A stretch of DNA of 64,000 nucleotides from IMG/VR virus record IMGVR_UViG_3300010370_000025; one strand, 5' to 3'. Below the pieces are notes generated by a model, which ran no database searches, was not told the DNA's origin, and saw only the letters and a program-made list of their open reading frames with translations. Positions 41,480 through 61,263 of this stretch are shown here, one piece after another (positions within the stretch are counted from its first letter, which is position 1; each line of letters starts with the position of its first letter). This stretch comes from a virus (Duplodnaviria > Heunggongvirae > Uroviricota > Caudoviricetes). The translations under genes were made by a program, and so were the position numbers.

Positions 41480-42238
41480 ATGCAGACGATACTTATTACT
41501 GGGCATAAAGGCTTTATAGGAAGTCATTTATTTAAATATCTTTCTGAAAACTATAATTGTATAGGTCTAGATATAAAAGATGGTCAAGATATTAGATCAT
41601 GTGATTTACCTAACTGTAATATTATTATTCACTTAGCAGGGTTAGCAGGGGTAAGACATAGTTTTAATAAACCGGATTTATATTGGGATGTAAACGTTAA
41701 TGGATCAAAAAGAATATTTGAACACGCTAATAAAATAAATGCTAAAGTTTTATATGCTTCTAGCTCTACTGCTAAGAATCCAGAAACAAGTCCATATGCT
41801 CAAACTAAAAGAGCATTAGAATTAATATCTCCTAAAAATTCTATAGGCATGAGATTTCATACAGTATACGGAATTGATTCTAGACCGGATATGATGTATA
41901 GAAAGTTACTCGAAAATACAGCAGAATATATTACAACACATACTAGAGACTTTACAAGTATAAAAGATCTAATAGTAGCAGTTGAAATTTTATTATTAAG
42001 TGATTATACTGGTATTGTAGACATCGGTACTGGTGAGCAAGTTCAAGTATCGCAGCTTGCAGCTGCAATAGGTAGAAATTTACCATATAAAAGTGTTACA
42101 GGTGAACAGGTTTCAAGTAAAGCAGACACTAGAGTACTTAAATCTCTTGGCTGGTCACCTAAGTATGTCGTATTGGATGAAATAAAGAATGATCTTCTTC
42201 AAAAAAATAAGATGGAAAAATCTGTTAAGTACAGGTAA
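41480..42238 (+). CDS. Short NAD(P)-dependent epimerase/dehydratase (extended SDR) inserted between gp47 and gp46
   Basis: Rossmann motif 'ITGHKGFIGSHL' and a catalytic 'YAQTK' YxxxK. Confidence 0.6.
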   Translation: MQTILITGHKGFIGSHLFKYLSENYNCIGLDIKDGQDIRSCDLPNCNIIIHLAGLAGVRHSFNKPDLYWDVNVNGSKRIFEHANKINAKVLYASSSTAKNPETSPYAQTKRALELISPKNSIGMRFHTVYGIDSRPDMMYRKLLENTAEYITTHTRDFTSIKDLIVAVEILLLSDYTGIVDIGTGEQVQVSQLAAAIGRNLPYKSVTGEQVSSKADTRVLKSLGWSPKYVVLDEIKNDLLQKNKMEKSVKYR

Positions 42239-44113: not shown

Positions 44114-44279
44114 TTTTGAATCTAGATATCGTAAATGGCATACTTATATGTCTTATGTTAAGAGTGGTATTCGTATTGTTGCATTTGGCGGATTGGCATT
44201 AGGATTGATTGGAGCTGCATTTACAGCAACTCTATTACTTATTGCTGAATTAGTTGGTGTAGCAGAGGAGTGGGTATGA
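44106..44279 (+). CDS. Small predicted membrane protein (57 aa), missed by the ORF track
   Basis: ATG at 44106, a hydrophobic stretch 'IRIVAFGGLALGLIGAAFTATLLLIAELVGV', and a stop that overlaps the next ATG. Confidence 0.3.
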   Translation: MSDFESRYRKWHTYMSYVKSGIRIVAFGGLALGLIGAAFTATLLLIAELVGVAEEWV

Positions 44280-44896
44280 GCGATTATCGTTATGAAGTAG
44301 TAGGTATTTTTCCTTTACCAATTTTAGTAGCTTCTTTGCCTAGAGATTTTCTTCAGCTTGAAATAGACTATTTTCAAGATCTAGAAAGCAAAACAGTTGA
44401 TAATGTAGGTAATAAAGTATCTAAAAATAAAAATGTTTTAGGTGAGCCTGTATTAGGTCGTCTAAATGCAGATTGTCATAATTTACTTAAATGCTTTGTA
44501 GATAAAATTTATAACCCAGAAAATGAGTTAGAACCATATATTACTCAATCTTGGGTTAATTATACTACTGAAGGTCAAGATCACCACAGACACACTCATC
44601 CTAATAGTTGGTTATCAGGGGTAGTTTATATTAATGCAGATAAAGAACATGATAAGATTTATTTTCATAATGAGCCTTATAAACTAATTAATCCGGTTAC
44701 TAAAGAACATAATCCATTTAACTGTACGTCTTGGTCAATACCTGTAAAGACAGGAGATATTGTAATATTTCCGTCAGATATTTCACACAGCGTAGGAACA
44801 AAGACTGGCAATAATACTAGAGTTAGTCTAGCATTTAATAGCTTTGTAAAAGGTATTGTAGGAAGCTATGATGGCTCTACTGAATTAATTTTGTGA
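44276..44896 (+). CDS. 2OG-Fe(II) oxygenase superfamily protein (second paralog)
   Basis: 'HHRHTHPNSWLSGVVY' and 'IFPSDISHS' are paralogous to 35834-36634. Confidence 0.65.
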   Translation: MSDYRYEVVGIFPLPILVASLPRDFLQLEIDYFQDLESKTVDNVGNKVSKNKNVLGEPVLGRLNADCHNLLKCFVDKIYNPENELEPYITQSWVNYTTEGQDHHRHTHPNSWLSGVVYINADKEHDKIYFHNEPYKLINPVTKEHNPFNCTSWSIPVKTGDIVIFPSDISHSVGTKTGNNTRVSLAFNSFVKGIVGSYDGSTELIL

Positions 44897-44902
44897 GATA
44901 TT

Positions 44903-45400
44903 ATGAATATAATTAAATTTCCTGATCCAGTATTAACTACTGAGACTCAATATTTTGATTTTGAAAATCCACCTATGGATCCTAACGAACTATCTTTAAC
45001 GTTAATCCGTAAAGTGAATGAGCATAACGGGCTTGGATTATCCGCTAACCAGCTAGGTATTCCATATAAAGTGTTTGTTATTAAAGGCAATCCTAATATT
45101 GTATGTTTTAATCCTAAAATAGTATCCCATAGTGATGATGAAACTATTATGGTTGAAGGTTGCTTATCTTACCCCAATTTACTAATTAAGATTAGACGTC
45201 CAGTAGAGATTAGAACTCGTTTTCAAGTACCATCTGGAGTTACTACAACTAAACCATTTGTAGGTCTTACAGCAAGAGTATTTCAGCACGAACTAGATCA
45301 CCTTAACGGTATAGCATTTTTTAATAGAGCTAACCTTTATCATAAAGAACAAGCATTTAGGAAACTTAAAAATGACAACAGAAGAGCAGCCCAGCGCTAA
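44903..45400 (+). CDS. def: Peptide deformylase
   Basis: Three PDF motifs: 'GLSANQLG', 'EGCLSYP' and 'HELDHLNG'. Confidence 0.85.
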   Translation: MNIIKFPDPVLTTETQYFDFENPPMDPNELSLTLIRKVNEHNGLGLSANQLGIPYKVFVIKGNPNIVCFNPKIVSHSDDETIMVEGCLSYPNLLIKIRRPVEIRTRFQVPSGVTTTKPFVGLTARVFQHELDHLNGIAFFNRANLYHKEQAFRKLKNDNRRAAQR

Positions 45401-45685: not shown

Positions 45686-46522
45686 ATGTCAAAGATTAAA
45701 ATAGCAGAACTGTTCTATTCACTTCAAGGTGAGGGGCAGTATCTTGGAACTCCAAGCCTCTTTCTTAGAGTGTTTGGATGTAATTTTATGTGCCAGGGGT
45801 TCTCAATGCCTCGTGGTGAGCTCTCTGAAGAGCGTTTATCGATAGATCCAGCAAAATATGAAAAGTATGATAATTTACCTCTAGTACATACTGGATGTGA
45901 TTCATACGCGTCTTGGGATGCTCGTTTTAAGCATCTATCACCAATGCTTACAGTTGAAGCTATTGTTGATAGAATGCAGCAAATACTCCCAGGCGGTAAG
46001 TTTGGACATACTCATCTTATTCTTACTGGTGGTGAGCCTTTGCTTGGATGGCAAAGATCATATCCTGCTTTGTTGCAAGAAATTATTAACCGAGACATGG
46101 ATCTCGGATACATTACTTTTGAAACTAATGGTACGCAAGAGTTAACAGATCAATTGCAAGGTGTTCTTAAACACTTTAATGTTACTTATAGTGTATCATC
46201 TAAATTACCTTCTTCTGGAGAAAAATGGGAAGAAGCAATTAAGCCTGAAATTGTTAACAAATATGTTCGTAATGGTGATCTAACTTACTTTAAATGGGTC
46301 GTGTCAAACGAAGACGATTATAATGATGTCATCAAAGCTATTGATGAGTATAGTAAAGTTATCGATATGACACAAGTGCCTATTTACCTTATGCCTGCAG
46401 GTGGAACTACAAAACATTATGATAATAATGAAAAGTGGGTTGCAGATTTAGCTATGAAACATGGGTGGAGATATAGTCCACGTCTACAAGTTCAACTCTG
46501 GAAAAATGCATGGGGCACATAA
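45686..46522 (+). CDS. queE: 7-carboxy-7-deazaguanine synthase QueE (radical SAM)
   Basis: 'LFYSLQGEG', 'GCNFMCQGF' and 'LTGGEPLL'. Confidence 0.8.
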   Translation: MSKIKIAELFYSLQGEGQYLGTPSLFLRVFGCNFMCQGFSMPRGELSEERLSIDPAKYEKYDNLPLVHTGCDSYASWDARFKHLSPMLTVEAIVDRMQQILPGGKFGHTHLILTGGEPLLGWQRSYPALLQEIINRDMDLGYITFETNGTQELTDQLQGVLKHFNVTYSVSSKLPSSGEKWEEAIKPEIVNKYVRNGDLTYFKWVVSNEDDYNDVIKAIDEYSKVIDMTQVPIYLMPAGGTTKHYDNNEKWVADLAMKHGWRYSPRLQVQLWKNAWGT

Positions 46523-47052
46523 TGAGTAATAATACAGCAGATATAGTTATGCCAAAAGGCAGATTTTACAAATACGTTAGCACTAAAGAATATCATAACG
46601 CATTTCCATGTGCATACAGACAGTGGCGTGCAGACAGTCATTGTAATTTAATTCACGGCTATGCTTTTTCAATGAAATTTTATTTTGGAACAGATCATCT
46701 TGATGCTCGTAATTGGTGTGCAGATTATGGTGGTCTTAAGGAACTTAAGAAAGTACTAGAAGATCAATTTGATCACACTTTACTCGTTGCGCAAGATGAT
46801 CCAGAATTTGAAACATATAAATTGCTTGAAAGTAAAAACTTAGCTAAACTAACAGTACTACCTAAGCTAGGCTGTGAAGGTTTAGCTGATATGCTTTATA
46901 AGTATGTAAACGGGGTTTATATACCTGATATGTGGGGTCCAGGTGAAGCAGAACGTCTATGGTGTTTTAGAGTAGAAGTTCGCGAAACAGTTTCTAATAT
47001 GGCCTACCGTGAAGGCCACCGTGAATGGCATGAGGATCTATTTAATGACTGA
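46522..47052 (+). CDS. queD: 6-carboxy-5,6,7,8-tetrahydropterin synthase QueD
   Basis: PTPS-fold motifs 'CNLIHGYAF' and 'FDHTLL'. TAATG overlap with queE (alternative start 46510). Confidence 0.75.
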   Translation: MSNNTADIVMPKGRFYKYVSTKEYHNAFPCAYRQWRADSHCNLIHGYAFSMKFYFGTDHLDARNWCADYGGLKELKKVLEDQFDHTLLVAQDDPEFETYKLLESKNLAKLTVLPKLGCEGLADMLYKYVNGVYIPDMWGPGEAERLWCFRVEVRETVSNMAYREGHREWHEDLFND

Positions 47053-47812
47053 TAATGATTTTGATGTGATATATGATGAGTCTGGCTTTGTAGTAGGTCA
47101 GGTAAGTAAACCAATCTCTGCATCTAATAAAATTAAGCAAAGGTTACAAGATGCCAATCATCGCTATTATGCCAATGATAACATTAGCAAATTTTTGGAC
47201 GATAATACTCGTCAGCAGCTTATTGACGAAGTAGCAACTAAATTCGATGGTGTGCTTCGTTCACTGTTAATTGACGTTGATAATGATCCAAACTCTAAAG
47301 GTACAGCTAAGCGTCTCGCTAAGATGTATATTAATGAGATTATGAGAGGTAGATATCATGACGAACCAGACGTTACCTCATTTCCAAATGATGGCTCTCA
47401 TGGGACAGACCCTTATAAAGGTATGTTGGTTGTTAGGGCTGAACTTAAGTCTATGTGTAGTCATCACCATCAACCTGTTACTGGTACAGCATATATTGGT
47501 GTCATACCTAATACCCATGTTATTGGTCTCAGTAAGTACATTCGTATTGCGCAGCATTGTGCGCGACGTGGAACGCTACAGGAAGAACTTTGCGGAGACA
47601 TAGCAAAGGCAATTAGCTCTGCTACACAGTCAAAAGATGTAGGTGTGTATATTGAAGCAACTCATGGGTGCTGTGAGAACAGAGGTATTAGCGCGTCTAA
47701 CTCACTTACGCAAACAGCTGTGCTTATGGGTGACTTCCTTACTGATCCTTCAGTAAAGAACGAGTTCTATAGTAATATTAAGTTACAAACAAGTCGCTAT
47801 TCTTGTAACTAA
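47045..47812 (+). CDS. folE: GTP cyclohydrolase I (FolE)
   Basis: 'CSHHHQPV' and 'HVIGLSKYIRIAQHCARRGTLQEEL'. ATG at 47045 (track 47009). Confidence 0.8.
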   Translation: MTDNDFDVIYDESGFVVGQVSKPISASNKIKQRLQDANHRYYANDNISKFLDDNTRQQLIDEVATKFDGVLRSLLIDVDNDPNSKGTAKRLAKMYINEIMRGRYHDEPDVTSFPNDGSHGTDPYKGMLVVRAELKSMCSHHHQPVTGTAYIGVIPNTHVIGLSKYIRIAQHCARRGTLQEELCGDIAKAISSATQSKDVGVYIEATHGCCENRGISASNSLTQTAVLMGDFLTDPSVKNEFYSNIKLQTSRYSCN

Positions 47813-47870
47813 TTGAAATCATTGATAAAAAATAACAGTTGATTTCTTAACCTGTTGATATTATTATAAT
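47812..47870 (+). promoter_or_regulatory. Intergenic region carrying two copies of the ATTGAAATCATTGA/AACCTGTTGATA motif and TATAAT-like elements (putative sigma70-like early promoter)
   Basis: Motif shared with the 30011-30081 array. Confidence 0.4.
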
Positions 47871-47902
47871 AATTATAGGCTAATAAATGGAGATTTACAC
47901 CT

Positions 47903-48115
47903 ATGATTAATCTTGACAAATATGTACAACAGGTATGGAAAGCAGAAACTACAGAAAAGAAGCGAGAAGCTTTTAAAGAGCTTCTCGCAATTTCCCATGC
48001 TAAGACAGAAACTAAAGTAAAGGCGCTTAGAGATATTCAAACTCTTTCAGGTAAAAAGCTTGACACCTTTGCTACAAATTTTGCTTTTTCTGGTTACGGA
48101 CTTAAGGTAAAGTAA
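47903..48115 (+). CDS. Small hypothetical protein
   Basis: ORF only. Confidence 0.3.
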   Translation: MINLDKYVQQVWKAETTEKKREAFKELLAISHAKTETKVKALRDIQTLSGKKLDTFATNFAFSGYGLKVK

Positions 48116-48116
48116 T

Positions 48117-48551
48117 ATGACGTGGTATAAGAATGCTGAAGGTAGACATGGTGCTGCAGGAGCTAAAGGTGATGCAGGTGAAGAACTTGTCAAACATTAT
48201 CTAGAAGAAAGTAATATCAATTACGAGCATAAGACTGATATTGACAGTCAAGTTAATAAAAAGATTGACTTCATTGTAGAAGGTACTACAATGGATGTTA
48301 AGACTAATGCATACAAAGATTTTCTTGCAGTAGAAATTGCTACATCAAAAGGTAAACCAGGGTGGCTTTATACTTCTACTGCAGAAGAGATTTACGGTGT
48401 AGATTTAGAAAAAGAAGAGATATACAGATATCTACGTGAAGAGATGATTCAGTATGCAGCAGATAATGCGCATCGATTTAAAGTAACAAAAAATAATTCA
48501 GTACTACTTTGGGTACATAAAGATAATAAAATGATTGAGAGATTGCAATGA
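48117..48551 (+). CDS. Hypothetical protein (possible PD-(D/E)xK nuclease fold: 'IDFIVEG...MDVKT')
   Basis: Weak motif resemblance only. Confidence 0.3.
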   Translation: MTWYKNAEGRHGAAGAKGDAGEELVKHYLEESNINYEHKTDIDSQVNKKIDFIVEGTTMDVKTNAYKDFLAVEIATSKGKPGWLYTSTAEEIYGVDLEKEEIYRYLREEMIQYAADNAHRFKVTKNNSVLLWVHKDNKMIERLQ

Positions 48552-49339
48552 AGATAGCACATGAAGCACCAATAAGCATTTTTCCTCAAGTACAGCGCAT
48601 GACTGATTATGATTATGCGCTTGTTCACTTATTTGAATCTAATATGTTTTACTATCGCATGTTTAAAGATGCAGTTATTAACGGGCGTGAAGTTATTTTA
48701 GATAATTCTATTTTTGAATTGGGATATGCATTTGACGGTGATTCATATCATAATTGGATTTTAACTTTAAGCCCTACTTGGTATATTGTGCCTGATGTAT
48801 TAGAAGATACAAATGGTACTCTTAATAGTCTTAATAAGTGGTTTTCAAAGTTTGATATTCCAAAGCCTATTAAGTCTATTGGAGCTATTCAAGGTACTAC
48901 CTACGATGAAATTGTAGAGTGTTATCAGGGGGTTGAACCTTTTGTAGATAAGGTTGCTATATCATTTGATTTTTCTTATTATATTAAGTCAACAGAATAT
49001 TTAAAGCCTGATAATAAGTATTATGCTTGGATGCTTGGCCGTCAAAAGCTATTGAAAGATTTGCTTAATGATGGTATTATCAATACTAATAAACCCCATC
49101 ACCTTCTTGGGTGCGCATTACCTCAAGAGTTTTTAGCTTATAAAGATTATAAGTGGATTGACTCTGTAGATACTTCTAATCCTATTGTACATGGATTAAA
49201 TGGTATAGCGTATAAACCTAATGGTTTAGATGAAAAGATTTCTACTAAACTTATTGATTATATGACTGAGAGTGTTACTGATACTCAACTAGAATTTATT
49301 AAAGGTAATATTGAACAGTTTAGAAAGTTTTGTAAGTGA
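48548..49339 (+). CDS. tRNA-guanine-transglycosylase-fold protein (DpdA-like 7-deazaguanine DNA transglycosylase candidate)
   Basis: TGT-like motifs 'ILDNSIFELG' (cf. DSGGFQ), 'HLLGCALP' (cf. LMGVGTP) and 'IDSVDTSNP' (cf. GVDMFDCV). It is embedded among que genes. Confidence 0.5.
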   Translation: MKIAHEAPISIFPQVQRMTDYDYALVHLFESNMFYYRMFKDAVINGREVILDNSIFELGYAFDGDSYHNWILTLSPTWYIVPDVLEDTNGTLNSLNKWFSKFDIPKPIKSIGAIQGTTYDEIVECYQGVEPFVDKVAISFDFSYYIKSTEYLKPDNKYYAWMLGRQKLLKDLLNDGIINTNKPHHLLGCALPQEFLAYKDYKWIDSVDTSNPIVHGLNGIAYKPNGLDEKISTKLIDYMTESVTDTQLEFIKGNIEQFRKFCK

Positions 49340-49884
49340 AACCTTGGATTGCGCTCTTTAGTAATACTGGTAGCGAGCTCAAAAGGATCTGCGATCATTT
49401 TGATATATGGCCTACATCTGTAATTACTAATAATTTTAACTCGGATGATTGGCGTCATAATATTCCAGAAGATATTGTGACAATGATGTCACCTAGCGCT
49501 ATTCACGCCGGGTTTAAGCATATGTATAAAAGGCAGTTTGTTACTCTACATGGGTATATGAGAATATTGCCTCCAGAAGCATGTGAAATGCATGATGTAT
49601 ATAACGGGCATCCAGGCGCTATCAATCTTTATCCTGAACTTAAAGGTAAAGATCCTCAAGAGCGAGTGTGGAATGATCTAGGTAAATATGAGTTTATTGG
49701 TTCAGTTGTGCATAAAGTTACTGAAGAGCTTGATGGTGGTGAGATTGTAAGTAAAGTCTTTTGCGAAAACACTTGCACTTCTAAAGAAGAGCTCTATAAT
49801 ACAATTAGAGAAACTTCATTTAGATCATGGAAAAACTTTCTTTCAACTCATTTTGAGAGAGAGCTAGGAGTAAATAATGTCTGA
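49336..49884 (+). CDS. PurN/Fmt-family formyltransferase domain protein (DpdN-like candidate)
   Basis: 'NGHPGAINLYPELKG' and 'SVVHKVTEELDGGEIVSKVF' match the PurN catalytic-loop pattern (H..D). Confidence 0.7.
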   Translation: MKPWIALFSNTGSELKRICDHFDIWPTSVITNNFNSDDWRHNIPEDIVTMMSPSAIHAGFKHMYKRQFVTLHGYMRILPPEACEMHDVYNGHPGAINLYPELKGKDPQERVWNDLGKYEFIGSVVHKVTEELDGGEIVSKVFCENTCTSKEELYNTIRETSFRSWKNFLSTHFERELGVNNV

Positions 49885-50122
49885 CGCAATTAAACCTGAT
49901 CATTATAAAGCAGGTAATGCATTGTATAGCTGTATCGATGTTATTGAAGATCTTTGTAAAGGTACAAAGAACGATACGTTTACAGATTATAATAGATTTC
50001 AAGCTTTTAAGTATATCTGGAGAGCAGGTAATAAAGATCCTGTACTTCAAGATCTTAAGAAAGCAGTTAGATTTTTAGAATTTGCTATTGCATACGAGGA
50101 AAAGAAGAATGGTAAAAATTGA
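49877..50122 (+). CDS. DUF3310-like small protein (paralog 1)
   Basis: Shared motifs with 51059-51472: 'PDHY', 'FKYIWRAGNKDP' and 'DLKKA..FLE'. Confidence 0.45.
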   Translation: MSDAIKPDHYKAGNALYSCIDVIEDLCKGTKNDTFTDYNRFQAFKYIWRAGNKDPVLQDLKKAVRFLEFAIAYEEKKNGKN

Positions 50123-51059
50123 GGATATTGCATCAAAGCATTTAGGTAAAGCTGGCGACGGTTCGGTAGTTAAGCCTTATGTTACACCAGATAATATTGA
50201 CCCTAGTCTTTTAGTAGGCGTTCCTCGTTATCTTAATCGCATTCAGTATGCAATTGATGAAAACAACCTTCCTTTTGAAGGTTTTGATACTTGGAATTGC
50301 TATGAGTTTTCTGCATTAACTGATAATGGATTTCCTGTATGCGGGGTAATTCGTTGTGTATATTCTAGCAGCTCTAAGAATATTGTAGAGTCAAAGTCTC
50401 TCAAGCTTTATATGAACTCTTATAATATGGCAAGGCTTGGTAAAAGTGTTAAAGAGGTGACTGAAAACGCAGTTGCAACTATCCGTAAAGATCTTGTAGA
50501 GGTTCTTGGATTAGCTGATGAAAATGATTTGAATGTTTCATTTTGTGATGATCAAAGCCCTTCATATGAACCTATCAATGAGCCATATAAGTCAGCATTT
50601 GTTAAGCTTGAATATGTTAATGACATTGAAAATATGACGTTTGATCATTATAATGAAGATCCTAAGATTCTTCAAGTTATACCAACTAATAATTCATCGG
50701 TAGAATTTAAATGGAAGTCATCTGTACTTCGCTCTAATTGTAGAGTAACCAATCAACCCGACTGGGGTGATGTTTTTATTTCTATTAAAGGCGATAATAC
50801 AATTACTTCAGAATCTTTACTCCAATACTTAGTATCTATGCGTAAAGAAAATCACTTTCACGAAGAAATTTGTGAATGCATTTATAAGAGATTATATGAT
50901 CTACTTAATCCAGAAGAGTTGTTTGTAGCTTGTCTTTATACACGTAGAGGCGGTATAGATATTAATCCAGCTCGCGCTACTAATAAAGAGGTAGTTATGA
51001 AACATGCTTCTATGCTTTATAATTCATCAATTAATAATATTAAAACTTTGAGGCAATAA
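50109..51059 (+). CDS. queF: NADPH-dependent 7-cyano-7-deazaguanine reductase QueF (two-domain type)
   Basis: QueF signature 'ESKSLKLYMNSY'. ATG at 50109 (track 50082). Confidence 0.7.
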   Translation: MVKIEDIASKHLGKAGDGSVVKPYVTPDNIDPSLLVGVPRYLNRIQYAIDENNLPFEGFDTWNCYEFSALTDNGFPVCGVIRCVYSSSSKNIVESKSLKLYMNSYNMARLGKSVKEVTENAVATIRKDLVEVLGLADENDLNVSFCDDQSPSYEPINEPYKSAFVKLEYVNDIENMTFDHYNEDPKILQVIPTNNSSVEFKWKSSVLRSNCRVTNQPDWGDVFISIKGDNTITSESLLQYLVSMRKENHFHEEICECIYKRLYDLLNPEELFVACLYTRRGGIDINPARATNKEVVMKHASMLYNSSINNIKTLRQ

Positions 51060-51472
51060 TGACAAAAGCTAGTAAGAGTAATATGTTTGAAAAGAGTGCA
51101 GCAGAAGAGCCGTTTTTAGCTACTATGGGTTCAACAGAACCGTTCGGTGCAGTAGGATCTTCTATTAGTGTAGATAATGTTAGCTTTACAATGCAAGAAC
51201 CTGCTTATATATCTACTCAGTACGACGTCAATCAAGAAACAGTAGATCATCCAGATCATTATGGTGGTGCTGATAATCCTTATGAAGCAATTAAGGTTAT
51301 TCGCGCTTGGGACCTTGGATTTAGTCTAGGTAATACAGTAAAATATATTTCACGTGCAGGTAAGAAAGATCCTAATAAGCGTCTTGAAGACTTGCAAAAA
51401 GCACTTTGGTATTTAGAAGAAGAGATTCAGTATGAATTTGCAAAAAGCCTTGGACCACGTTCCGGATACTAA
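51059..51472 (+). CDS. DUF3310-like small protein (paralog 2, with an N-terminal extension)
   Basis: 'PDHYGG', 'VKYISRAGKKDP' and 'DLQKALWYLEEE'. Confidence 0.45.
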   Translation: MTKASKSNMFEKSAAEEPFLATMGSTEPFGAVGSSISVDNVSFTMQEPAYISTQYDVNQETVDHPDHYGGADNPYEAIKVIRAWDLGFSLGNTVKYISRAGKKDPNKRLEDLQKALWYLEEEIQYEFAKSLGPRSGY

Positions 51473-52205
51473 ACATAATGTTGTATCAGTTCTCTCCGGA
51501 GGGCTCGACTCTACTATTATGACTTATATTCTTGTACGTAAGTATGGTGCAAATAGAGTCTTTGCACTTTCATATAACTACGGACAGAAGCAAAAAGTAG
51601 AACTTGAAATGGCAGCTAAGACATGTGAGTATCTTGGCGTAGCACATAAGGTTCTTGATCTAAGCATCCTAGGTGATATTGTTAAGAACGTCTCTGCTAA
51701 CATTGGTGGTAGTGATGTTAATATGCCTACTATTAAGGATGTGCTTGGAGATCCTCAACCTAAGACATACGTACCCTTCCGTAATATGATTCTTAATTCG
51801 TTAGCATTCTCGTTTGCAGAAGCTAATAAAGCAAGTCATGTATTTACTGGATTACAAGTACATGATGAATATGGTTATTGGGATACTACTCAGAAGTTTG
51901 TAGATAGTATGAATGCAGTAGCAGATCAAAATCGTACTCATAAAGTTAAACTAGAAGCGCCTTTTAGTCTTCTTTCTAAGTATGATGAACTTATGATAGC
52001 TAAAGAACTTGGTAATGTTCGTTTAGAATATACTCTTACCTGCTATGATCCAGATGAACAAGGTCGTTCATGCGGTATTTGCCCATCATGCTCTGAACGT
52101 CTTCAAAATTTTATTAAAGCAAATATGAGAGACCCTATTCAATACCAACCAGGTAGAACTGTTGATTGGGATAGGTTTCTTATTAACGGTGGTGTAAGCT
52201 ATTAA
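51432..52205 (+). CDS. queC: 7-cyano-7-deazaguanine synthase QueC
   Basis: PP-loop 'SGGLDS' and a C-terminal zinc motif 'CGICPSCSERL'. Confidence 0.8.
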   Translation: MNLQKALDHVPDTKHNVVSVLSGGLDSTIMTYILVRKYGANRVFALSYNYGQKQKVELEMAAKTCEYLGVAHKVLDLSILGDIVKNVSANIGGSDVNMPTIKDVLGDPQPKTYVPFRNMILNSLAFSFAEANKASHVFTGLQVHDEYGYWDTTQKFVDSMNAVADQNRTHKVKLEAPFSLLSKYDELMIAKELGNVRLEYTLTCYDPDEQGRSCGICPSCSERLQNFIKANMRDPIQYQPGRTVDWDRFLINGGVSY

Positions 52206-52849
52206 TGTGCAGTATATTTGGCAGTTTTAGTACTGAAAAGTTAAAAGAGTTAGCTGAGCTTAATTTATATAGAGGTCAGCACTCTTATTCTTTTTCATAC
52301 TATGATATCCTTAAAAGACAAATCACCTTTATGCAGAAAGATTTAGGTGAATTGCCTATTAATGACATTAATATACCTGAAGGGCATTATGCAATAGCAC
52401 ATATGCAAGCTCCCACTACAGGTAATAAAAGAGCTAACACTATACACCCGGCTACTATAGGCGTGCATAGTCTTTGGCATAATGGTATTATTAAAGATCA
52501 TTGTGTAAAAAATATGTCACGTAATACCGTTTTTATTGAAAATGGTGATTTAGATTATCTTTCTTGGGATACTTATTTAATTCTCCATCAGTATGTTTAT
52601 CAAGGCAATATAAATAATATAGATGGTACATTTTCATGCGTATACTATAGTGAGCGTGATGGATTGAGATTGTTTCGTAATGAGATATCACCGCTTTTTA
52701 TTGATAAAGAGCACAACATATCCTCAACTAAATTTAACGATTCAGAATCGCTAATGCCTAATATTATCTGGCAATTTTTGCCAGGTGAAGGTATAATGTC
52801 AATTGATACCTTTAAAACAGTAGAAAACCCTTATTATTTTGGAATATAA
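52205..52849 (+). CDS. Class-II (Ntn) glutamine amidotransferase-like domain protein, free-standing downstream of queC
   Basis: Begins 'MCSIFG', i.e. a nucleophile Cys right after Met as in AsnB/GATase-II. TAATG overlap with queC. Confidence 0.5.
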   Translation: MCSIFGSFSTEKLKELAELNLYRGQHSYSFSYYDILKRQITFMQKDLGELPINDINIPEGHYAIAHMQAPTTGNKRANTIHPATIGVHSLWHNGIIKDHCVKNMSRNTVFIENGDLDYLSWDTYLILHQYVYQGNINNIDGTFSCVYYSERDGLRLFRNEISPLFIDKEHNISSTKFNDSESLMPNIIWQFLPGEGIMSIDTFKTVENPYYFGI

Positions 52850-52852
52850 TTC

Positions 52853-53362
52853 ATGATGATTCATATTGCATCTAAAGAGACTGGATCTTCTCTTACTAAT
52901 TTAGTTGAAGCAGATATTCAACCTAATGCTGTAGATCTTAGAGTGAGTAAAATTTTCTCTATTAATCAAAATACTTTTGTTATCGGTGAAGATGATGATG
53001 GCAAAGAGACAAAAATTCATCGAGGTTCTACTGAAGTATATCCAGATGAGTACGGCTATTATACTCTTGACCCTGGCTCATATGAAGTAATTATGGAAAA
53101 TATTATTTCAGTGGGAGCTGATGAAGCGGGGTGGGTTATTACTCGTTCTACTCTTAATCGTAATGGTGTATATATTACTAGCGGGTTATATGATTCAGGT
53201 TATAATGGTGTCATGGCTGGCGCACTTCATGTAACTAGAGGTACTGCCCGTATTAAGAAGGGTACTCGAGTAGGGCAATTCCTATTATTTAAGTCTCAAT
53301 CTCTTAAGAAATATGATGGAGATTACGGTATCGGTAAGGCGCATGATCAAAAATATAATTGA
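52853..53362 (+). CDS. dUTPase/dCTP-deaminase-fold protein
   Basis: 'SGLYDSGYNGVMAGALHV' resembles the dUTPase/dCD motif III region. Predicted beta-rich. Confidence 0.45.
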   Translation: MMIHIASKETGSSLTNLVEADIQPNAVDLRVSKIFSINQNTFVIGEDDDGKETKIHRGSTEVYPDEYGYYTLDPGSYEVIMENIISVGADEAGWVITRSTLNRNGVYITSGLYDSGYNGVMAGALHVTRGTARIKKGTRVGQFLLFKSQSLKKYDGDYGIGKAHDQKYN

Positions 53363-53545: not shown

Positions 53546-54403
53546 ATGGAAATTAAAATTGAACTTGAAGAGCTAAGAAAGAAAAAGCTCTTTATTGCTA
53601 CCCCGATGTATGGTGGTGCTTGTACAGGTATGTACACTCGCTCTATGTGTGATTTGACATCGATGCTAGTAAAGTATGGTATTGAAATGCGATCATACTT
53701 CCTATTTAACGAATCACTTATTACTCGTGCACGTAACTATTGCGTGGATGAATTCTTGCGTTCTGACTTTACACATCTTATGTTTATTGACTCAGATATT
53801 GGATTTAATCCTCAAGACGTAATTGCACTTCTTGCATTACAGGACGATGATTCACCGTATGATGTTATCGGTGGACCTTATCCTAAAAAGTGTATTACAT
53901 GGGAAAAGGTAAAGCAAGCTGTCGATAAGGGTGTTGCTGATAAAGATCCTAACGTGCTTGAAGATTTTGTAGGCGACTTCGTATTCAATCCAGTTATTGA
54001 GAATGGTGCTAAGTCTAAGGAAATTCGTCTTGATGAACCTGCAGAGGTTCTTGAGATTGGTACTGGATTTATGATGATTCGTAAGAAGACGTTTGATCAG
54101 TATGCGGCAGCTTATCCAGAAATTATGTATAAGCCTGATCATGTTCGTACTGCTGCGTTTGATGGGTCGCGTGAGATTGGAATGTATTTCCAAGCAGAGA
54201 TTGATCCTGCATCTAAGCGCTATCTATCAGAAGATTATCTCTTCTGTCAAAACGTACGTAAGATGGGCGGTAAGGTATGGATTTGTCCGTGGATGCATAT
54301 GGCGCATTCAGGCTTCTATACATTCAATGGTAAGCTTCCCGCTCTTGCTTCTATTGGTGCATCAGCTACTGCTGATCCAGCGCTATTAAAGAATAAGAAG
54401 TAA
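53546..54403 (+). CDS. GT-A fold glycosyltransferase-like protein ('FIDSDIGF' DxD)
   Basis: DxD plus an upstream 'ESLITRARN' motif. Confidence 0.45.
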   Translation: MEIKIELEELRKKKLFIATPMYGGACTGMYTRSMCDLTSMLVKYGIEMRSYFLFNESLITRARNYCVDEFLRSDFTHLMFIDSDIGFNPQDVIALLALQDDDSPYDVIGGPYPKKCITWEKVKQAVDKGVADKDPNVLEDFVGDFVFNPVIENGAKSKEIRLDEPAEVLEIGTGFMMIRKKTFDQYAAAYPEIMYKPDHVRTAAFDGSREIGMYFQAEIDPASKRYLSEDYLFCQNVRKMGGKVWICPWMHMAHSGFYTFNGKLPALASIGASATADPALLKNKK

Positions 54404-54419
54404 TTAAAGGATATTTGTT

Positions 54420-55097
54420 ATGAAACTTAGTGAACAGACTATTAATATTTTAAAGAACTTTTCAGTTATTAATAATAACTTGCTTGTTAACCCAGGTAAT
54501 ATTCTTACTACTGTTGCCCCGCAATCACGTTCCGTGTACGCTAAAGCAAACGTAGAAGAAACTTTTCCAAAGCAATTTGCTATCTATGAATTGAATAAGT
54601 TTCTTGGTGTAGTATCTCTCTTCAAGGAACCAGAGCTTGAGTTTGGTGATATGTCAGTTAAGATTGTCTCAGGTAGACAATCAGTAAGCTATACATATGC
54701 AGACCCATCTATGGTTATTGCACCAGATCCTAATAAGGATATTAATTTTCCGACAGCAGATATTGAGTTCTCCATTTCTCAAGAAGAACTTCAGCGCGTC
54801 GTAAGGGCTGCAGGTGTTCTTCAGTTGCCGGAAATTGCAGTGACTGGTGATGGTGCGAACATTACCGTCACTGCTACTAATTCAAAGAATCCAACTACTG
54901 ATGTATTCAGTATTGAGGTAGGTGAGACTAATCATACTTTTAATATGTTAATTAAAGCAGAAAATATTATTAAGTTAATTTCTGCTAACTATGAAGTAAA
55001 GATTACATCGCGCGGACTAGCACAATTTAAGTCTAATAATGTAATCTATTATATTGCAACAGAAGCTAATAGCACATTTAATAAGGATGAAAATTAA
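54420..55097 (+). CDS. gp45: Sliding clamp gp45
   Basis: Colinear with T4 gp45 ('MKLS..T..LKNF..IN'). Confidence 0.85.
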   Translation: MKLSEQTINILKNFSVINNNLLVNPGNILTTVAPQSRSVYAKANVEETFPKQFAIYELNKFLGVVSLFKEPELEFGDMSVKIVSGRQSVSYTYADPSMVIAPDPNKDINFPTADIEFSISQEELQRVVRAAGVLQLPEIAVTGDGANITVTATNSKNPTTDVFSIEVGETNHTFNMLIKAENIIKLISANYEVKITSRGLAQFKSNNVIYYIATEANSTFNKDEN

Positions 55098-55690
55098 TGA
55101 ACGTATATATTCTACTTGACAGATCAGGTTCTATGTCAAGTCTTTGGAATGAAGCAATTGGCGCTATTAATGCATACGTAAAAAAGCTTGACAAAAAGAC
55201 CAAGATCTTTTTATCAACTTTTGATAATGAAAGCTATGATGTTCTTCGTAACTCTAGTGTAAAAGAGTGGAAGGATATTGGTGAGAAAGAATCGCATCCT
55301 AGAGGTATGACTCCTCTTTATGATTCTTGTGCACGTATTATGAATCGTGCAATTGAAGATAATAGCGATAAAACTATTCTTGTCGTAATGACAGATGGTT
55401 TTGAGAATTGCTCAAGAGAGCATACTCGTGAACAGATTAAAGCTAAGATTAAAGACTTTGAAAAGAAAAACTGGGAAGTTGTTTTTCTCGGAGCAAACTT
55501 TGATAAGGTAGATTCAGTTGCATCTGATCTCGGGCTAGCGTATAATAAGTTTACAAATATTACTACAAATAACCTTAGATCGTATATGATGGGTAGTCTA
55601 GCTGACGCTACTGTAGCATATACTACTGCAGGTACTGCAGTAAATATTACTGACAAAGATAAGATGTCTGCTACTAAAGCATCAGTCTAA
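55097..55690 (+). CDS. von Willebrand factor A domain protein (MIDAS 'DRSGSM') inserted between gp45 and gp44
   Basis: vWA motifs 'LLDRSGSM', 'T....' and 'VVMTDGFEN'. Confidence 0.7.
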   Translation: MNVYILLDRSGSMSSLWNEAIGAINAYVKKLDKKTKIFLSTFDNESYDVLRNSSVKEWKDIGEKESHPRGMTPLYDSCARIMNRAIEDNSDKTILVVMTDGFENCSREHTREQIKAKIKDFEKKNWEVVFLGANFDKVDSVASDLGLAYNKFTNITTNNLRSYMMGSLADATVAYTTAGTAVNITDKDKMSATKASV

Positions 55691-57463: not shown

Positions 57464-58534
57464 ATGTATAATTATGATGATGTTAGAGTAGTTCATTTAG
57501 AAATTACTCAAAAGTGTCAAGCTTCCTGTCCGATGTGTGACAGAAATCAAAATGGGGGCTTAATCAACCCCCATCTTTCTTTAGCTGAACTCTCCTTAGA
57601 AAATTGTAAGCAAATATTTGAGCCTGCTTTTATTAAGCAGCTTAACTACATGTATATGTGTGGTAATTTAGGTGATCCTATTATTGCTAATGATACTCTA
57701 GAAGTATTTGATTACTTTCGCACACATAACCCTAACATGAAACTAAGCATGAATACCAATGCAGGTGCTAGAAATCAGCAATGGTGGCGAGATCTTGCTA
57801 AAGTATTAGGCCCGAAGGGGATGGTAAGATTCTCTATAGATGGATTAGAAGATACTAATCATATCTACAGAAGAGGTGTTCAATGGGATAATGTAATGAG
57901 CTCTCTTACCAGTTTTATTGATGCTGGAGGTAACGCTATATGGGATTATTTAATATTTGATCATAATGCACATCAAGTAGAAGAAGCAAAAAAATTATCA
58001 GTTAATCTAGGTGTAAAAACTTTTGTAGAAAAGAAAACATCTAGATTCTATAGTACAGCAAAAACATCTCTTAAAGATACTCATACTGTAAAAGATCGTA
58101 AAGGTAACGATCAATATGATCTAAAACCAGTAGATACACCTCTTAATAATAAAATTAATAATACTATAGATAAGCATGGTAGTCTATCTAACTATTATGA
58201 TACAACAGAAATAGTTTGTAAAGTAAAAGAACAAAAAAGTATTTTTATTACTGCTGAAGGTCTAGCAATGCCTTGTTGCTGGACTGCTTCCCGTATGTAT
58301 AAGTGGTGGCATAAAGATCCTAAAGTAGAACAGGTGTGGCAATTTATTAAAGATACAGATAGAATAAACGTTCTTAAACACGGTATTAAAGATGTGCTTA
58401 ATAATGGTGTATTTCAAGATATAGAAGTAAGCTGGGGGCTTCGATCAGTAGCAGAAGGTAAACTGAAAGTATGCTCTGAGAAATGTGGTAAAGAGTTTGA
58501 TCCGTTTAAGGAACAATTTGTTAATGCAAAATAA
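57464..58534 (+). CDS. Radical SAM enzyme with a C-terminal SPASM/twitch-like Cys cluster (rSAM-A)
   Basis: 'ITQKCQASCPMC' (CxxxCxxC), 'CGNLGDP', and a C-terminal 'C-x12-G-x4-CC ... CSEKCGKEF'. Confidence 0.65.
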   Translation: MYNYDDVRVVHLEITQKCQASCPMCDRNQNGGLINPHLSLAELSLENCKQIFEPAFIKQLNYMYMCGNLGDPIIANDTLEVFDYFRTHNPNMKLSMNTNAGARNQQWWRDLAKVLGPKGMVRFSIDGLEDTNHIYRRGVQWDNVMSSLTSFIDAGGNAIWDYLIFDHNAHQVEEAKKLSVNLGVKTFVEKKTSRFYSTAKTSLKDTHTVKDRKGNDQYDLKPVDTPLNNKINNTIDKHGSLSNYYDTTEIVCKVKEQKSIFITAEGLAMPCCWTASRMYKWWHKDPKVEQVWQFIKDTDRINVLKHGIKDVLNNGVFQDIEVSWGLRSVAEGKLKVCSEKCGKEFDPFKEQFVNAK

Positions 58535-59927
58535 AATATCATCTACATTCTGCGCTTTACCTTGGGTACATTTAAGCACAAGACCAGACGGTTCAATGCG
58601 TGTGTGTTGCACAGCTAATGCATCAGGAGTACAAGATCCTGATAGTAGTAAGCGTGTTAATGGTGGTAATGCAGGTATAGTTAAGAATCAAAATAATATG
58701 CCAGCAAATCTCAACCACACATCACTTAATGATGCGTGGAATAATGAGTACATGTGCAACGTGCGTAAAACAATGCTTAAAGGTGAAAAGCCAACTTCTT
58801 GTCTCAAATGTTATAAAGAAGAAGAAGCAGGTGTTATCAGTAAACGTCAATGGGAAACTGATTACTGGGGTAAGATATTTGATCTTAATGAGATAGTATC
58901 GGAGACTAAAGAAGATGGTTCTATTCCAGCAAAAATTAGATATTTAGATCTTAGACTAGGTTCTAAATGTCAGCTTGCATGTGTTATGTGTTCACCGCAT
59001 GATAGTTCAGGTTGGGTAAAAGAATGGAATGAAATTTATCCTAAGATTGAAAATGAAAATTTAAAACGTAATAGTAATTGGCATATGAAGGGCCAAGTAG
59101 GTGGTGCTAGCTATAACTGGCATCTTAATAATCCTACATTCTGGGAAGAGCTTTATGAGCAGATTCCTCATATGTATCAACTATACTTTGCTGGTGGTGA
59201 AAGCACTATCATTAAAGAACATTATCTTCTTCTGGAAGAGTGTATCAAAAGAGGATATGCAAGCCAAATTGAACTTAGATATAACTCTAACGGGCTTGAA
59301 TTGCCTGAAAAGCTTTTCGAGCTTTGGTCGCATTTTAGGTTAGTTAAATTTCATTTTTCTATAGATGCATTAGGCAAGCAGAACGAATATATTCGTTATC
59401 CTACTGATTGGAAGACTATAGAAAATAACTTACACATTCTTGATAATACCCCTGATAATGTAGAAGTAACAATAGCTTGTACCTTGATGGCATTAAACAT
59501 ATACTATTTTCCAGATTTTATAAAGTGGAAACTTACTCAAGGCTTTAAAAAGATCAATAAATATCCATACGGTGCTGGAACTATTAATACCCATTTTGCG
59601 TATTACCCTCCTCAGCTTAACGTTAAAGTCCTGCCTAAAGAGTTTAAACAAAAAGTCGTTGACAAATACGAAAACGATTTCTTTCCTTGGTTAGAAGAAA
59701 ACTGGAAACTTGCAACAGGCATACCTGACACTGTAAGTAAAGAAAAGTGGTTTAGTGAGAATTATAGTATTAAAAGATATAAAAGTATTCTAAACTTTAT
59801 GAATAAAGAAGACTGGAGTCAAAGATTACCAGAGACTGCAGAATGGATTAAACGTATAGATGATACCCGTGGTTTGAACTTCTATGAAATATTTCCTGAT
59901 TTTGATTGGTTAAAAAATTATGAGTAA
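58524..59927 (+). CDS. Radical SAM enzyme with an N-terminal SPASM-like Cys-rich domain (rSAM-B)
   Basis: N-terminal 'FCALPW..DGSMRVCC' and 'SCLKCYKEEEAG', followed by a core 'LGSKCQLACVMC' and 'FAGGEST'. ATG at 58524. Confidence 0.55.
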   Translation: MQNKISSTFCALPWVHLSTRPDGSMRVCCTANASGVQDPDSSKRVNGGNAGIVKNQNNMPANLNHTSLNDAWNNEYMCNVRKTMLKGEKPTSCLKCYKEEEAGVISKRQWETDYWGKIFDLNEIVSETKEDGSIPAKIRYLDLRLGSKCQLACVMCSPHDSSGWVKEWNEIYPKIENENLKRNSNWHMKGQVGGASYNWHLNNPTFWEELYEQIPHMYQLYFAGGESTIIKEHYLLLEECIKRGYASQIELRYNSNGLELPEKLFELWSHFRLVKFHFSIDALGKQNEYIRYPTDWKTIENNLHILDNTPDNVEVTIACTLMALNIYYFPDFIKWKLTQGFKKINKYPYGAGTINTHFAYYPPQLNVKVLPKEFKQKVVDKYENDFFPWLEENWKLATGIPDTVSKEKWFSENYSIKRYKSILNFMNKEDWSQRLPETAEWIKRIDDTRGLNFYEIFPDFDWLKNYE

Positions 59928-61263
59928 GACGTTTTGTCCTATGCCTTGGAATTCAGTTAACCTGCGCAATAATGGTGATATGCGCATTTGCTGTAACGCC
60001 AATTCATATACTAAAAATAGAGGTATTCTTAGAAAAGAGGACGGTACTGCATTTAATATCGGTAGAGATGATATTAATGAAGCTAGAAACTCTTCTACAC
60101 TAAAAGAAGTAAGAGCTACTATGCTTAAGGGTGAATGGCATTCTGAGTGTGAGCGCTGCCGACAAGAAGAAGTAAATGGTATTAGAAGTAGAAGAGAGTA
60201 TGAATCAGAACTCTGGAATACTGTAGAGGAAAATATTAAAGATAAAACGTTAGAAGACGGTACTATTAATGCAGAAGAGATTCCTATAGATTATTTTGAT
60301 ATTAGATACGGTAATTTTTGTAATTTAAAATGTCGTATGTGTGCTCCTACTGAATCACATACATGGTTTAGTGATTATGTAGAATTATACAAAACTAACA
60401 AGTATAAAGATACTCATGATACAATAGTACTTACTAAAAATAAAAAAGGTAGATGGGTAACAGATCAATACGATTGGTTTAAAAACTCTAATCATTACTG
60501 GCATCAATTTGAAAAATATACAAAAAATGCTAAAAAGTTTTATATAGTAGGAGGTGAACCTCTTATTATTGAAGAACATATTGATTCTTTAGAGCGTTTA
60601 ATTTATAATGGTAATTCTAAAGAGGTAGTTATAGAGTATAATACTAATTTAACAAACGTTACACCACGTATTCTTGAATTATGGAAAAACTTTAAGCAGA
60701 TTAGAATTGGTGCATCAATTGACGGGTTTGGTGATGTGTTTGAATATCAGAGAACCCCAGCAAATTGGGATAGTGTCTATGAAAATTTGCTTAAGTTGGA
60801 TACTAATACGGATATTAATTTAGTAGGCTGGTTTGCATTTACTGTAACACCTATTAATATATTTCATTTACCAGAATTTATGAAATGGAAATTAACAGAT
60901 AGTAAGCTTAATAGATTTAATACTATAAGAGGTGTACGTAAAGTAATATCTCACCATATGTGTCACGCACCTAGACATTATAATGTTAAGTGTCTTCCAG
61001 ACGAGATAAAACAACAAGTAGATGTACATTTTGCAGAGTATAAAGAATGGGCTAAGTGTCAACCAGAAGATGTATATAAAGATTTCTGTAAACTATTGAA
61101 TGGTGTTTCTCGTTTTATGAACTCTGAAAGATACTACGATCCTCATTTTACTGATTTTATTGATATAACCGCTAAACTGGATAAAATTAGAAACCAAGAT
61201 GTGAGAAAAATTGTCCCTCAATTTACAAAATACTTTGATGCATATTACGAACGAAAATCCTGA
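59920..61263 (+). CDS. Radical SAM enzyme, paralog of rSAM-B (rSAM-C)
   Basis: 'FCPMPW..NGDMRICC', 'ECERCRQEEVNG', 'YGNFCNLKCRMC' and 'VGGEPL'. Confidence 0.55.
   Translation: MSKTFCPMPWNSVNLRNNGDMRICCNANSYTKNRGILRKEDGTAFNIGRDDINEARNSSTLKEVRATMLKGEWHSECERCRQEEVNGIRSRREYESELWNTVEENIKDKTLEDGTINAEEIPIDYFDIRYGNFCNLKCRMCAPTESHTWFSDYVELYKTNKYKDTHDTIVLTKNKKGRWVTDQYDWFKNSNHYWHQFEKYTKNAKKFYIVGGEPLIIEEHIDSLERLIYNGNSKEVVIEYNTNLTNVTPRILELWKNFKQIRIGASIDGFGDVFEYQRTPANWDSVYENLLKLDTNTDINLVGWFAFTVTPINIFHLPEFMKWKLTDSKLNRFNTIRGVRKVISHHMCHAPRHYNVKCLPDEIKQQVDVHFAEYKEWAKCQPEDVYKDFCKLLNGVSRFMNSERYYDPHFTDFIDITAKLDKIRNQDVRKIVPQFTKYFDAYYERKS

Follow-up and report, generated by a model that had tools for sequence, protein, structure and literature searches.

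The subject of this analysis is a 64,000-nucleotide stretch of DNA, here called the window, from the virus recorded in IMG/VR as IMGVR_UViG_3300010370_000025 (Caudoviricetes), and within it a gene cluster at positions 45686 to 52849. The cluster consists of twelve open reading frames (ORFs) on the plus strand, which abut or overlap by a few base pairs, and encodes QueE, QueD, FolE, a protein with the tRNA-guanine transglycosylase (TGT) fold, a PurN-like formyltransferase, QueF, QueC, two DUF3310 proteins, and a glutaminase. All genes named in a first-pass annotation made from the sequence were found on the plus strand at the positions it had given, including the gene for the YhhQ transporter with its ATG at position 35226. 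The surroundings are T4-like, featuring the gp23 capsid protein (27901 to 29220), UvsY, UvsW, gp47- and gp46-like proteins, the gp45 clamp (54420 to 55097), and the gp44 clamp loader. The segment is a 7-deazaguanine island in the genome of an uncultivated T4-like myovirus, placed between its genes 46 and 45. Its origin by chance is excluded by the E values of the family matches and by the synteny kept in dozens of related contigs. A megablast search detected no near-identical DNA in cultured phages; proteins identical to those of the window are also encoded on unannotated metagenomic contigs of up to 195,579 bp.

The TGT-fold protein (48548 to 49339, plus strand; 263 residues) matched no Pfam or NCBIfam family. 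Its structure was predicted with AlphaFold2 using an alignment of 30 homologues, resulting in a model with a predicted local distance difference test (pLDDT) value of 92.6 and a predicted TM score (pTM) of 0.90. In a Foldseek comparison of this model with the PDB, the top 50 matches were all TGTs (E values of 7.6e-8 to 8.6e-7, probability 1.00, TMq of 0.59 to 0.70), which confirms the fold that had been suspected for this DpdA-like ORF in the first-pass annotation. Over its full length, the protein aligned by tblastn with DpdA of phage immuto (YP_010114477; 54.5% identity, E value of 6e-84) and with gp056 of CP220 and the corresponding proteins of the Campylobacter CP220 group (approximately 42% identity, E value of 8e-45). 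The DpdA3 subfamily, to which the window protein belongs, was founded on the immuto and CP220-group proteins (Cui et al. 2023, PMC10516641). The link to TGTs was recovered by fold comparison only and not by sequence profiles: a profile search of PDB sequences with the DpdA3 family returned no TGT, and hhalign aligned DpdA3 and DpdA of phage 9g with an E value of only 0.22, placing LDNS opposite LDSG. Two invariant DpdA3 motifs, ILDNSIFE (D52) and VDTSNP (D208), resemble the catalytic-aspartate motifs DSGG and DxxxP of TGTs, and their aspartates may correspond to one another. The C-terminal zinc subdomain (CxCxxC...H) is absent from DpdA3; the protein contains three cysteines, none of them invariant in the 30-sequence alignment. 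Isoelectric points were uninformative, as DpdA3 and the DNA-acting DpdA1 and DpdA2 are all acidic.

The formyltransferase gene (49336 to 49884, plus strand; PF00551, E value of 2.1e-9) overlaps the stop codon of the DpdA3 gene. The 182-residue product shares 38% identity with DpdN of phage immuto (gp204, YP_010114479; E value of 3e-26); it is truncated relative to PurN and scores 30.6 bits against the PurN cutoff of 150 bits. When aligned with E. coli PurN, it retains the equivalents of Asn106, His108, and Asp144 within the motifs NGHPG and ELDGG. The equivalents of the PurN catalytic residues and a loop of the form LFSxTGSxL, corresponding to the substrate-phosphate loop of PurN, are conserved in 72 DpdN homologues; the PurN sequence used for this comparison agrees with the E. 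coli PurN fragment of the separate alignment. By its sequence, the window protein is a DpdN homologue and a predicted formyltransferase for preQ1 (7-aminomethyl-7-deazaguanine) or its deoxynucleoside form, dPreQ1. For comparison of gene order, 92 loci (80 from IMG/VR; 86 with DpdA3) were scanned with the window proteins and the immuto proteins. A DpdN homologue was present in 76 of the 80 IMG/VR DpdA3 loci and, where found, was always encoded directly downstream of DpdA3. Two of the other four loci end at a contig edge, while the remaining two (L050 and L077) lack DpdN, and unformylated dPreQ1 is therefore expected there. In both, a kinase gene directly follows that of DpdA3.

The order DpdA3, DpdN, kinase slot, QueF is the same in the window, in phage immuto, and in 76 related loci. 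In the window, the slot between DpdN and QueF is occupied by a gene for an 81-residue DUF3310 protein (49877 to 50122, plus strand; PF11753, E value of 3e-10), which also matches PHROG families designated "nucleotide kinase." T7 gp1.7 itself matches PF11753 at residues 122 to 184 (E value of 4.5e-23), and the 81-residue protein aligns with this region; in the gp1.7 nucleotide kinase, DUF3310 represents the conserved core. The second DUF3310 protein of the island (51059 to 51472, plus strand; PF11753, E value of 2.8e-13) has 137 residues including an N-terminal extension and was restricted to the clade of the window and to locus L015. Neither protein contains the N-terminal 120 residues of gp1.7 with their Cys-rich part. 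The slot was filled in all 76 loci containing both DpdN and QueF, namely, by a P-loop kinase of the AAA_28 family in 56 and by DUF3310 in 20, and it was never empty; after collapsing at 90% DpdA3 identity, these counts correspond to 41 and 13 clusters, respectively. A neighbor-joining tree of 81 DpdA3 sequences, with CP220 as the root, shows the P-loop kinase as the ancestral state and DUF3310 in two separate clades; at least three changes are required. The P-loop kinase has been replaced twice by a non-homologous DUF3310 protein, and we propose from the sequences that DUF3310 in this slot takes the part of the P-loop nucleotide kinase encoded there in most relatives.

A small nucleotide-kinase-like gene flanks that of DpdA3 in every lineage examined (T4-/immuto-type, CP220, and BSTP12). 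In CP220, gp056 (DpdA3) is followed by gp057, an AAA_28 kinase with 32% identity to the immuto kinase (E value of 9e-20) and an orthologue of the kinase in immuto-type loci and in most T4-type relatives; the upstream gene encodes an HD/P-loop fusion and not a dUTPase-fold protein. In Bacillus phage BSTP12, a 187-residue protein that has Walker A and DRF motifs is encoded directly upstream of a distant DpdA3-like gene. This gene (locus L092, 4336 to 5684), which is mis-annotated as "NadR," lies between the P-loop kinase-like gene and that of DNA polymerase I and adjoins genes for QueC, QueD, QueE, and FolE; BSTP12-type Bacillus phages probably also carry deazaguanine in their DNA. As a control, 21 loci with DpdA1 (17) or DpdA2 (4) were inspected, a narrow set, and 20 of them were devoid of such a kinase. 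The single kinase-like neighbor outside the DpdA3 loci was seen in L109 (IMGVR_UViG_3300014325_000037), where a phosphoribosyltransferase (PRTase) gene and a DUF3310 gene lie upstream of that for a divergent DpdA1 with 40% identity to the 9g protein. Genes for nucleoside triphosphate (NTP) hydrolases are likewise found near that of DpdA3. Among the 30 clusters at 90% DpdA3 identity with a locus coverage of 6 kb or more on either side, 17 had a MazG-like and 11 a dUTPase-fold protein; a dUTPase/MazG-like gene accompanies DpdA3 in phiST, and CP220 has the HD fusion. Cui et al. 2023 (PMC10516641) do not use the term "kinase" in their main text, and nothing beyond that paper was found on DpdA3 biochemistry or on a kinase link in the literature searched.

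The enzymes for precursor synthesis are encoded in this core and on both sides of it. QueE, a radical S-adenosylmethionine (SAM) 7-carboxy-7-deazaguanine synthase-like protein (45686 to 46522, plus strand), was recognized by phrog_2076 (E value of 1.4e-54); its Pfam radical-SAM match was weak, the Pfam and NCBIfam QueE matches were all under cutoff, and the NCBIfam models were matched in split pieces. Its radical-SAM cysteines are arranged as CNFMC, a 34-residue insert, and C (CX3CX34C), unlike the CX3CX2C and CX14CX2C types. QueD, a 6-carboxy-tetrahydropterin (CPH4) synthase of the 6-pyruvoyltetrahydropterin synthase (PTPS) fold (46510 to 47052, plus strand; PF01242, E value of 1.3e-14), matched the CPH4 synthase structure 7v0f with an E value of 6e-4 and has the motif HCxxxHGY and not the zinc motif CxxxHGH. 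A defect of QueD or a DpdL-like change was considered for this CxxxHGY variant and rejected, as the variant is common to phage immuto and all aligned relatives (L001 and approximately 55 other loci) and the catalytic cysteine is kept. FolE, GTP cyclohydrolase I, follows at 47009 to 47812 (plus strand; PF01227, E value of 8.5e-40). The bimodular QueF (50082 to 51059, plus strand; probable start ATG at 50109), the nitrile reductase converting preQ0 (7-cyano-7-deazaguanine) to preQ1, matches QueF_N (PF14819, E value of 2.8e-28) and QueF (PF14489, E value of 4.7e-23) and scores 226 bits with TIGR03138, under the cutoff of 293. Its sequence carries ESKSLKLY, in line with the NADPH motif defined as E(S/L)K(S/A)hK(L/Y)(Y/F/W), and the catalytic cysteine motif SNCRVTNQPDWG; phage QueF proteins have been shown to complement an E. 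coli queF mutant. QueC (51432 to 52205, plus strand), the preQ0 synthase and a PP-loop ATPase, matches PF06508 (E value of 3.7e-54) and TIGR00364 (172 bits, above the cutoff of 150.3), contains the cysteine cluster C-x9-CGICPSC, and also matches the asparagine-synthase family.

Translationally coupled to QueC is a stand-alone class-II, i.e., N-terminal nucleophile (Ntn), glutaminase (52205 to 52849, plus strand). It showed no direct Pfam match, and a PDB search with the single sequence gave nothing meaningful; a family profile built from 29 homologues, however, aligned from the N-terminal cysteine onward with the class-II glutaminase domain of GlmS (E value of 1e-4). Cys2, Arg23, Asn93-Gly94, and Asp122 are invariant in the 29 sequences, and PF13522 is detected in some homologues. 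At least 52 records of cultured phages, for the most part KVP40-like Vibrio phages and Pseudomonas phage pf16, have the same order of QueC then glutaminase, and the pair follows QueF there as well. The first-pass annotation had listed a split QueC/glutamine amidotransferase among the novel details of the locus, a view that these records do not support. An identification of the window pair as the fused Gat-QueC was rejected, since QueC and the glutaminase are encoded by separate ORFs, with QueC first. Comparison with Gat-QueC of phage 9g, which makes the amidine G+ (archaeosine base), gave a marginal match of the glutaminase to the N-terminal domain (hhalign E value of 2.7e-4, probability 42%) and 26% identity of the window QueC to the C-terminal domain. 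A split Gat-QueC need not make archaeosine, because phi-Grn1 and phi-ST2 carry the pair and their DNA contains dPreQ1 and its methylated derivative mdPreQ1 but zero 2'-deoxyarchaeosine (dG+) (PMC10516641). As QueC is a PP-loop enzyme that also matches the asparagine-synthase family, we favor the interpretation of QueC and the glutaminase as a split preQ0 synthase that is glutamine dependent and resembles asparagine synthetase.

The system is of a type described in 2023, and the island typifies a family that is abundant in the environment. With DpdA3 as the query, 3602 proteins were found in a metagenomic protein collection (E value of 1e-3 or lower), and relatives of the island occur in at least 557 IMG/VR stretches. 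A 128-kb contig with a 79%-identical DpdA3 contains the same island gene for gene, again between gp46 and gp45, and the island is also present on a metagenomic contig with a 59%-identical DpdA3. Two main backbones can be distinguished, an immuto-like one with a MazG-like protein, the P-loop kinase, and a PRTase, and a T4-like one with the QueC-glutaminase pair, the dUTPase-fold protein, and gp45. An identical arrangement, including both DUF3310 genes, the glutaminase gene, and the dUTPase-fold gene, recurs in many metagenomic contigs, which does not support the initial supposition that the combination is novel in its details.

Among characterized systems, that of phage immuto is similar in its gene content (DpdA3, DpdN, FolE, QueD, QueE, QueC, and bimodular QueF), its core order, and the QueD motif HCxxxHGY. 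The backbones differ, immuto being a PolA phage and the window being T4-like (gp23, gp45, gp44, gp46, UvsW, and UvsY); furthermore, immuto has the P-loop AAA_28 kinase, a MazG-like gene, and a PRTase, whereas the window has DUF3310, a dUTPase-fold gene, and no PRTase. Additional to the immuto set are the QueC-coupled glutaminase, the second DUF3310 protein, a PD-(D/E)xK protein, and, 10 kb upstream, YhhQ and GuaC. Virion DNA of immuto contains 345,000 2'-deoxy-7-(formylamino)methyl-7-deazaguanosine (fdPreQ1) residues per 10^6 nucleotides and no dG (PMC10516641). Full substitution was likewise found for the DpdA3 phages CP220 and phiST (PMC10516641); together with immuto, they are all three DpdA3 phages that have been analyzed chemically. 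CP220 (Firehammervirus) resembles the window in its DpdA3 and shows complete G replacement, with 100% dADG (2'-deoxy-7-amido-7-deazaguanosine), but it has no QueF or DpdN, its final base is an amide, and its Que genes are not adjacent. The KVP40-like phages (VH7D, phi-Grn1, and phi-ST2) and pf16 share the QueF-QueC-glutaminase block (34 to 42% identity for the glutaminase) and the T4-like backbone, and preQ1-type products are made there as predicted for the window. They differ in having DpdA2 of approximately 450 residues, tailoring by the methyltransferase DpdM where present, and no kinase in the cluster; only approximately 0.1 to 0.3% of G is modified. Phage 9g has a class-II glutaminase associated with QueC as well as FolE, QueD, and QueE, but the glutaminase is fused ahead of QueC, the transglycosylase is a DpdA1, QueF and DpdN are missing, and approximately 25% of G is converted to dG+ (PMC10516641).

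Taken together, the segment is likely to be a DpdA3/DpdN-type 7-deazaguanine DNA hypermodification island whose product, made by the published route, would be fdPreQ1. This product is predicted because the core order DpdA3-DpdN-kinase-QueF is shared with immuto, the virion DNA of which contains fdPreQ1, and replacement of G is probably complete or nearly so, since all three chemically analyzed DpdA3 phages are fully substituted. The homology of DpdA3 and DpdN to the proteins of an fdPreQ1 phage also lends support to the first-pass annotation, in which a preQ1-derived and possibly N-formylated base had been proposed. From the gene identities, the TGT fold, the catalytic motifs, synteny, and distribution, we infer the chemistry, the extent of replacement, the order of steps, and the form of the substrate (base, nucleotide, or DNA) as follows. 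FolE, QueD, and QueE would convert GTP to 7-carboxy-7-deazaguanine, from which QueC would form preQ0, probably with ammonia from the coupled class-II glutaminase, and QueF would reduce preQ0 to preQ1. DpdA3 would swap guanine for the deazaguanine base, and DpdN would formylate the aminomethyl group using 10-formyl-tetrahydrofolate as the donor; the resulting fdPreQ1 would protect the DNA from restriction. As accessory functions, YhhQ may import precursors and GuaC may balance the guanine nucleotides. Several points weigh against this reading. For this phage, the fdPreQ1 prediction is drawn from gene content, the 38% identity to immuto DpdN is modest, and the NCBIfam equivalog scores of QueE, QueF, and one YhhQ model are under the curated cutoffs. 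In the literature, formylation of the 7-aminomethyl group by DpdN is a prediction, the action of DpdA3 on DNA is an inference, and DpdA3 was inactive in the E. coli tests of Cui et al. (PMC10516641). Finally, the glutaminase could serve to make the amidine G+ as 9g Gat-QueC does.

The accessory genes and the remaining features of the window are as follows. The YhhQ-family preQ0/preQ1 transporter (35226 to 35804, plus strand; PF02592, E value of 1.2e-20) scores 119 bits with TIGR00697 (cutoff of 51), while its match to NF008406 is under cutoff in spite of an E value of 4.5e-59; in loci L020, L021, L046, L051, and L085, YhhQ adjoins QueC. Immediately upstream, 10 kb from the island, lies the gene for a full-length GMP reductase, GuaC (34088 to 35224, plus strand; NF003470, 520 bits against a cutoff of 397, E value of 2e-156; PF00478, E value of 4e-66), which in L054 and L025 is located within the island. 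GuaC may drain guanine nucleotides, or the released guanine, into the adenine pool. Directly 3' of the island, outside the range of 45686 to 52849, is the gene for a trimeric NTP pyrophosphatase of the dUTPase/dCTP deaminase (DCD) fold (52853 to 53362, plus strand; PF22769, E value of 8e-14; PDB 9w59, "probable dUTPase," E value of 2.5e-8), which carries the dUTPase motif GLYDSGYNG and accompanies the island in non-T4 contexts as well (L020, L035, and L037). A function as dCTP deaminase was rejected, as the catalytic glutamate of the GxxTLE motif is replaced by alanine in an alignment with M. tuberculosis Dcd (2qxx); the protein is better described as a predicted dUTPase-type pyrophosphatase. 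Between FolE and DpdA3, two further proteins are encoded. The first, of 70 residues (47903 to 48115, plus strand), has a homologue at the same position in 17 related loci and matched no family in Pfam and PHROG profile searches. The second, a 144-residue protein (48117 to 48551, plus strand), was assigned to the PD-(D/E)xK nuclease fold by an AlphaFold2 model (pLDDT of 94.3) and Foldseek, the closest match being the homing endonuclease I-Ssp6803I (E value of 4e-3, probability 1.0), followed by Hjc/RecU resolvases and the SPARDA nuclease; E22, D51, and D60-x-K62 are invariant. Its gene, directly upstream of that of DpdA3 here, is sporadic among the relatives (14 of the 92 scanned loci), which together with the model suggests a possible mobile homing endonuclease.

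Farther downstream, a 285-residue protein encoded at 53546 to 54403 was considered as a DNA glycosyltransferase of the island and rejected, since its homologues occur in T4-like phages without a match to the window DpdA3, i.e., Stenotrophomonas phage DLP6 (74%) and Sinorhizobium, Synechococcus, and Pelagibacter phages; the gene belongs to the backbone and not to the island. Directly downstream of the clamp-loader genes, five radical-SAM ORFs follow one another (57464 to 63372, plus strand), two of them with an N-terminal SPASM domain, a cluster unusual for a T4-like phage. Further auxiliary genes are dispersed among the T4-like replication genes (41480 to 42238, 44270 to 45400, 35834 to 36634, and 55097 to 55690); this set comprises an NAD-dependent epimerase in the gap between gp47 and gp46, two 2-oxoglutarate-Fe(II) oxygenases, a peptide deformylase, and a VWA-domain protein in the gap between gp45 and gp44. 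No Rfam family, including preQ1 riboswitches, was detected in the 64 kb. Palindromes and restriction sites in the 64 kb were examined for avoidance; observed/expected ratios were 0.96 to 1.00 for AT-only and G/C-containing palindromes alike, a result uninformative with regard to protection of G.

The same genes and the same end product could also belong to a pre-replicative route, in which modification takes place at the level of the free deoxynucleotide and is followed by incorporation by the phage polymerase. First, dGTP would be converted to dGMP by an NTP pyrophosphatase, for which the window has the dUTPase-fold protein and other lineages have MazG-like or HD proteins; DpdA3 would exchange the base, DpdN would formylate it, and DUF3310 or the P-loop kinase would re-phosphorylate the product. 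Pre-replicative base replacement is known from T4, where gp56, gp42, and gp1 (dCTPase, hydroxymethylase, and dNMP kinase) provide hydroxymethylcytosine (hmC), and from DatZ, MazZ, and PurZ, which provide 2-aminoadenine. The gene logic is shared, with an NTP hydrolase, a base-modifying enzyme, and a dNMP kinase and with complete replacement of one base; the modifying enzyme here, by contrast, has the TGT fold, known only from polynucleotide substrates, and the activities of the three components are putative. Such a route would explain the 100% replacement, which is complete in every DpdA3 phage analyzed, and would agree with the kinase-like gene beside DpdA3 in each lineage, with the replacement of the P-loop kinase by DUF3310 in two separate clades, and with the non-homologous NTP hydrolases (MazG-like, dUTPase-fold, and HD) that accompany DpdA3; the DpdA1 and DpdA2 loci, in which substitution is partial, are devoid of such kinases in 20 of 21 cases. 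It is also in line with the PurN substrate-phosphate loop retained by DpdN and with the short DpdA3 lacking the zinc subdomain. Moreover, the ADG nucleoside has been reported in the cytoplasm of CP220-infected cells, and modification of DNA by DpdA3 is itself putative (PMC10516641). However, all characterized TGT-family enzymes act on polynucleotides, and the published view of base exchange by DpdA3 is post-replicative (PMC10516641). Kinases and dUTPases are ordinary genes of phage nucleotide metabolism, and the dUTPase-fold protein may be a plain dUTPase. The kinase role of the 81-residue DUF3310 protein, which is devoid of the N-terminal part of gp1.7, is putative, and an alternative task of the kinase and PRTase could be to return the released guanine to GTP for use by FolE, leaving the NTPases as housekeeping enzymes. 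Few lineages were sampled, and co-inheritance could inflate the pattern. Because no TGT-family enzyme is known to use a mononucleotide and because of this limited sampling, we regard the pre-replicative route as unlikely, albeit worth serious attention; if it were true, DpdA3 would become the first member of the TGT family to act on a mononucleotide.

Two other explanations concern the product itself. QueC and the glutaminase might act like Gat-QueC of phage 9g, which together with DpdA yields dG+, so that the DNA would contain dG+ alone or mixed with preQ1 derivatives. The glutaminase possesses all class-II catalytic residues, is coupled to QueC, and aligns weakly with the N-terminal domain of the 9g protein; this match, however, is marginal, zero dG+ was recorded for phi-Grn1 and phi-ST2, whose QueC and glutaminase are split in the same way, and immuto-type loci make fdPreQ1 without any glutaminase. 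As QueF and DpdN are encoded in addition, and as nearly all relatives have homologues of them immediately after DpdA3, dG+ is an improbable product. Still less credible, to the point of being very improbable, is a role of the genes solely in raising the supply of queuosine precursors for tRNA or host metabolism, with unmodified DNA and an ordinary PurN. Some phages do carry Que genes but no DpdA, and YhhQ and GuaC are general metabolic genes. The window, however, encodes DpdA3, the signature of DNA modification (PMC10516641), its 64 kb contain no tRNA gene, and the ORFs examined within the island and near it include no tRNA enzymes of the QueA, QueG, or TGT type. In addition, the truncated formyltransferase scores far below the PurN cutoff and follows DpdA3 in most of the IMG/VR loci, as described above. 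The assignment as a DpdA3/DpdN-type island with fdPreQ1 as the predicted product is preferred over both.

If this assignment holds, full substitution with fdPreQ1 through DpdA3 and DpdN is not confined to one Flavobacterium phage but would represent a common environmental module, and one that has moved into T4-like genomes. Since fdPreQ1 DNA resists restriction enzymes, its occurrence would be relevant to metagenomics and cloning. For DUF3310, a domain very common among phages, the kinase slot provides a functional context. The association of DpdA3 with kinases and NTP hydrolases is absent from the 2023 description and gives reason to ask whether complete replacement of G may be reached via the nucleotide pool.

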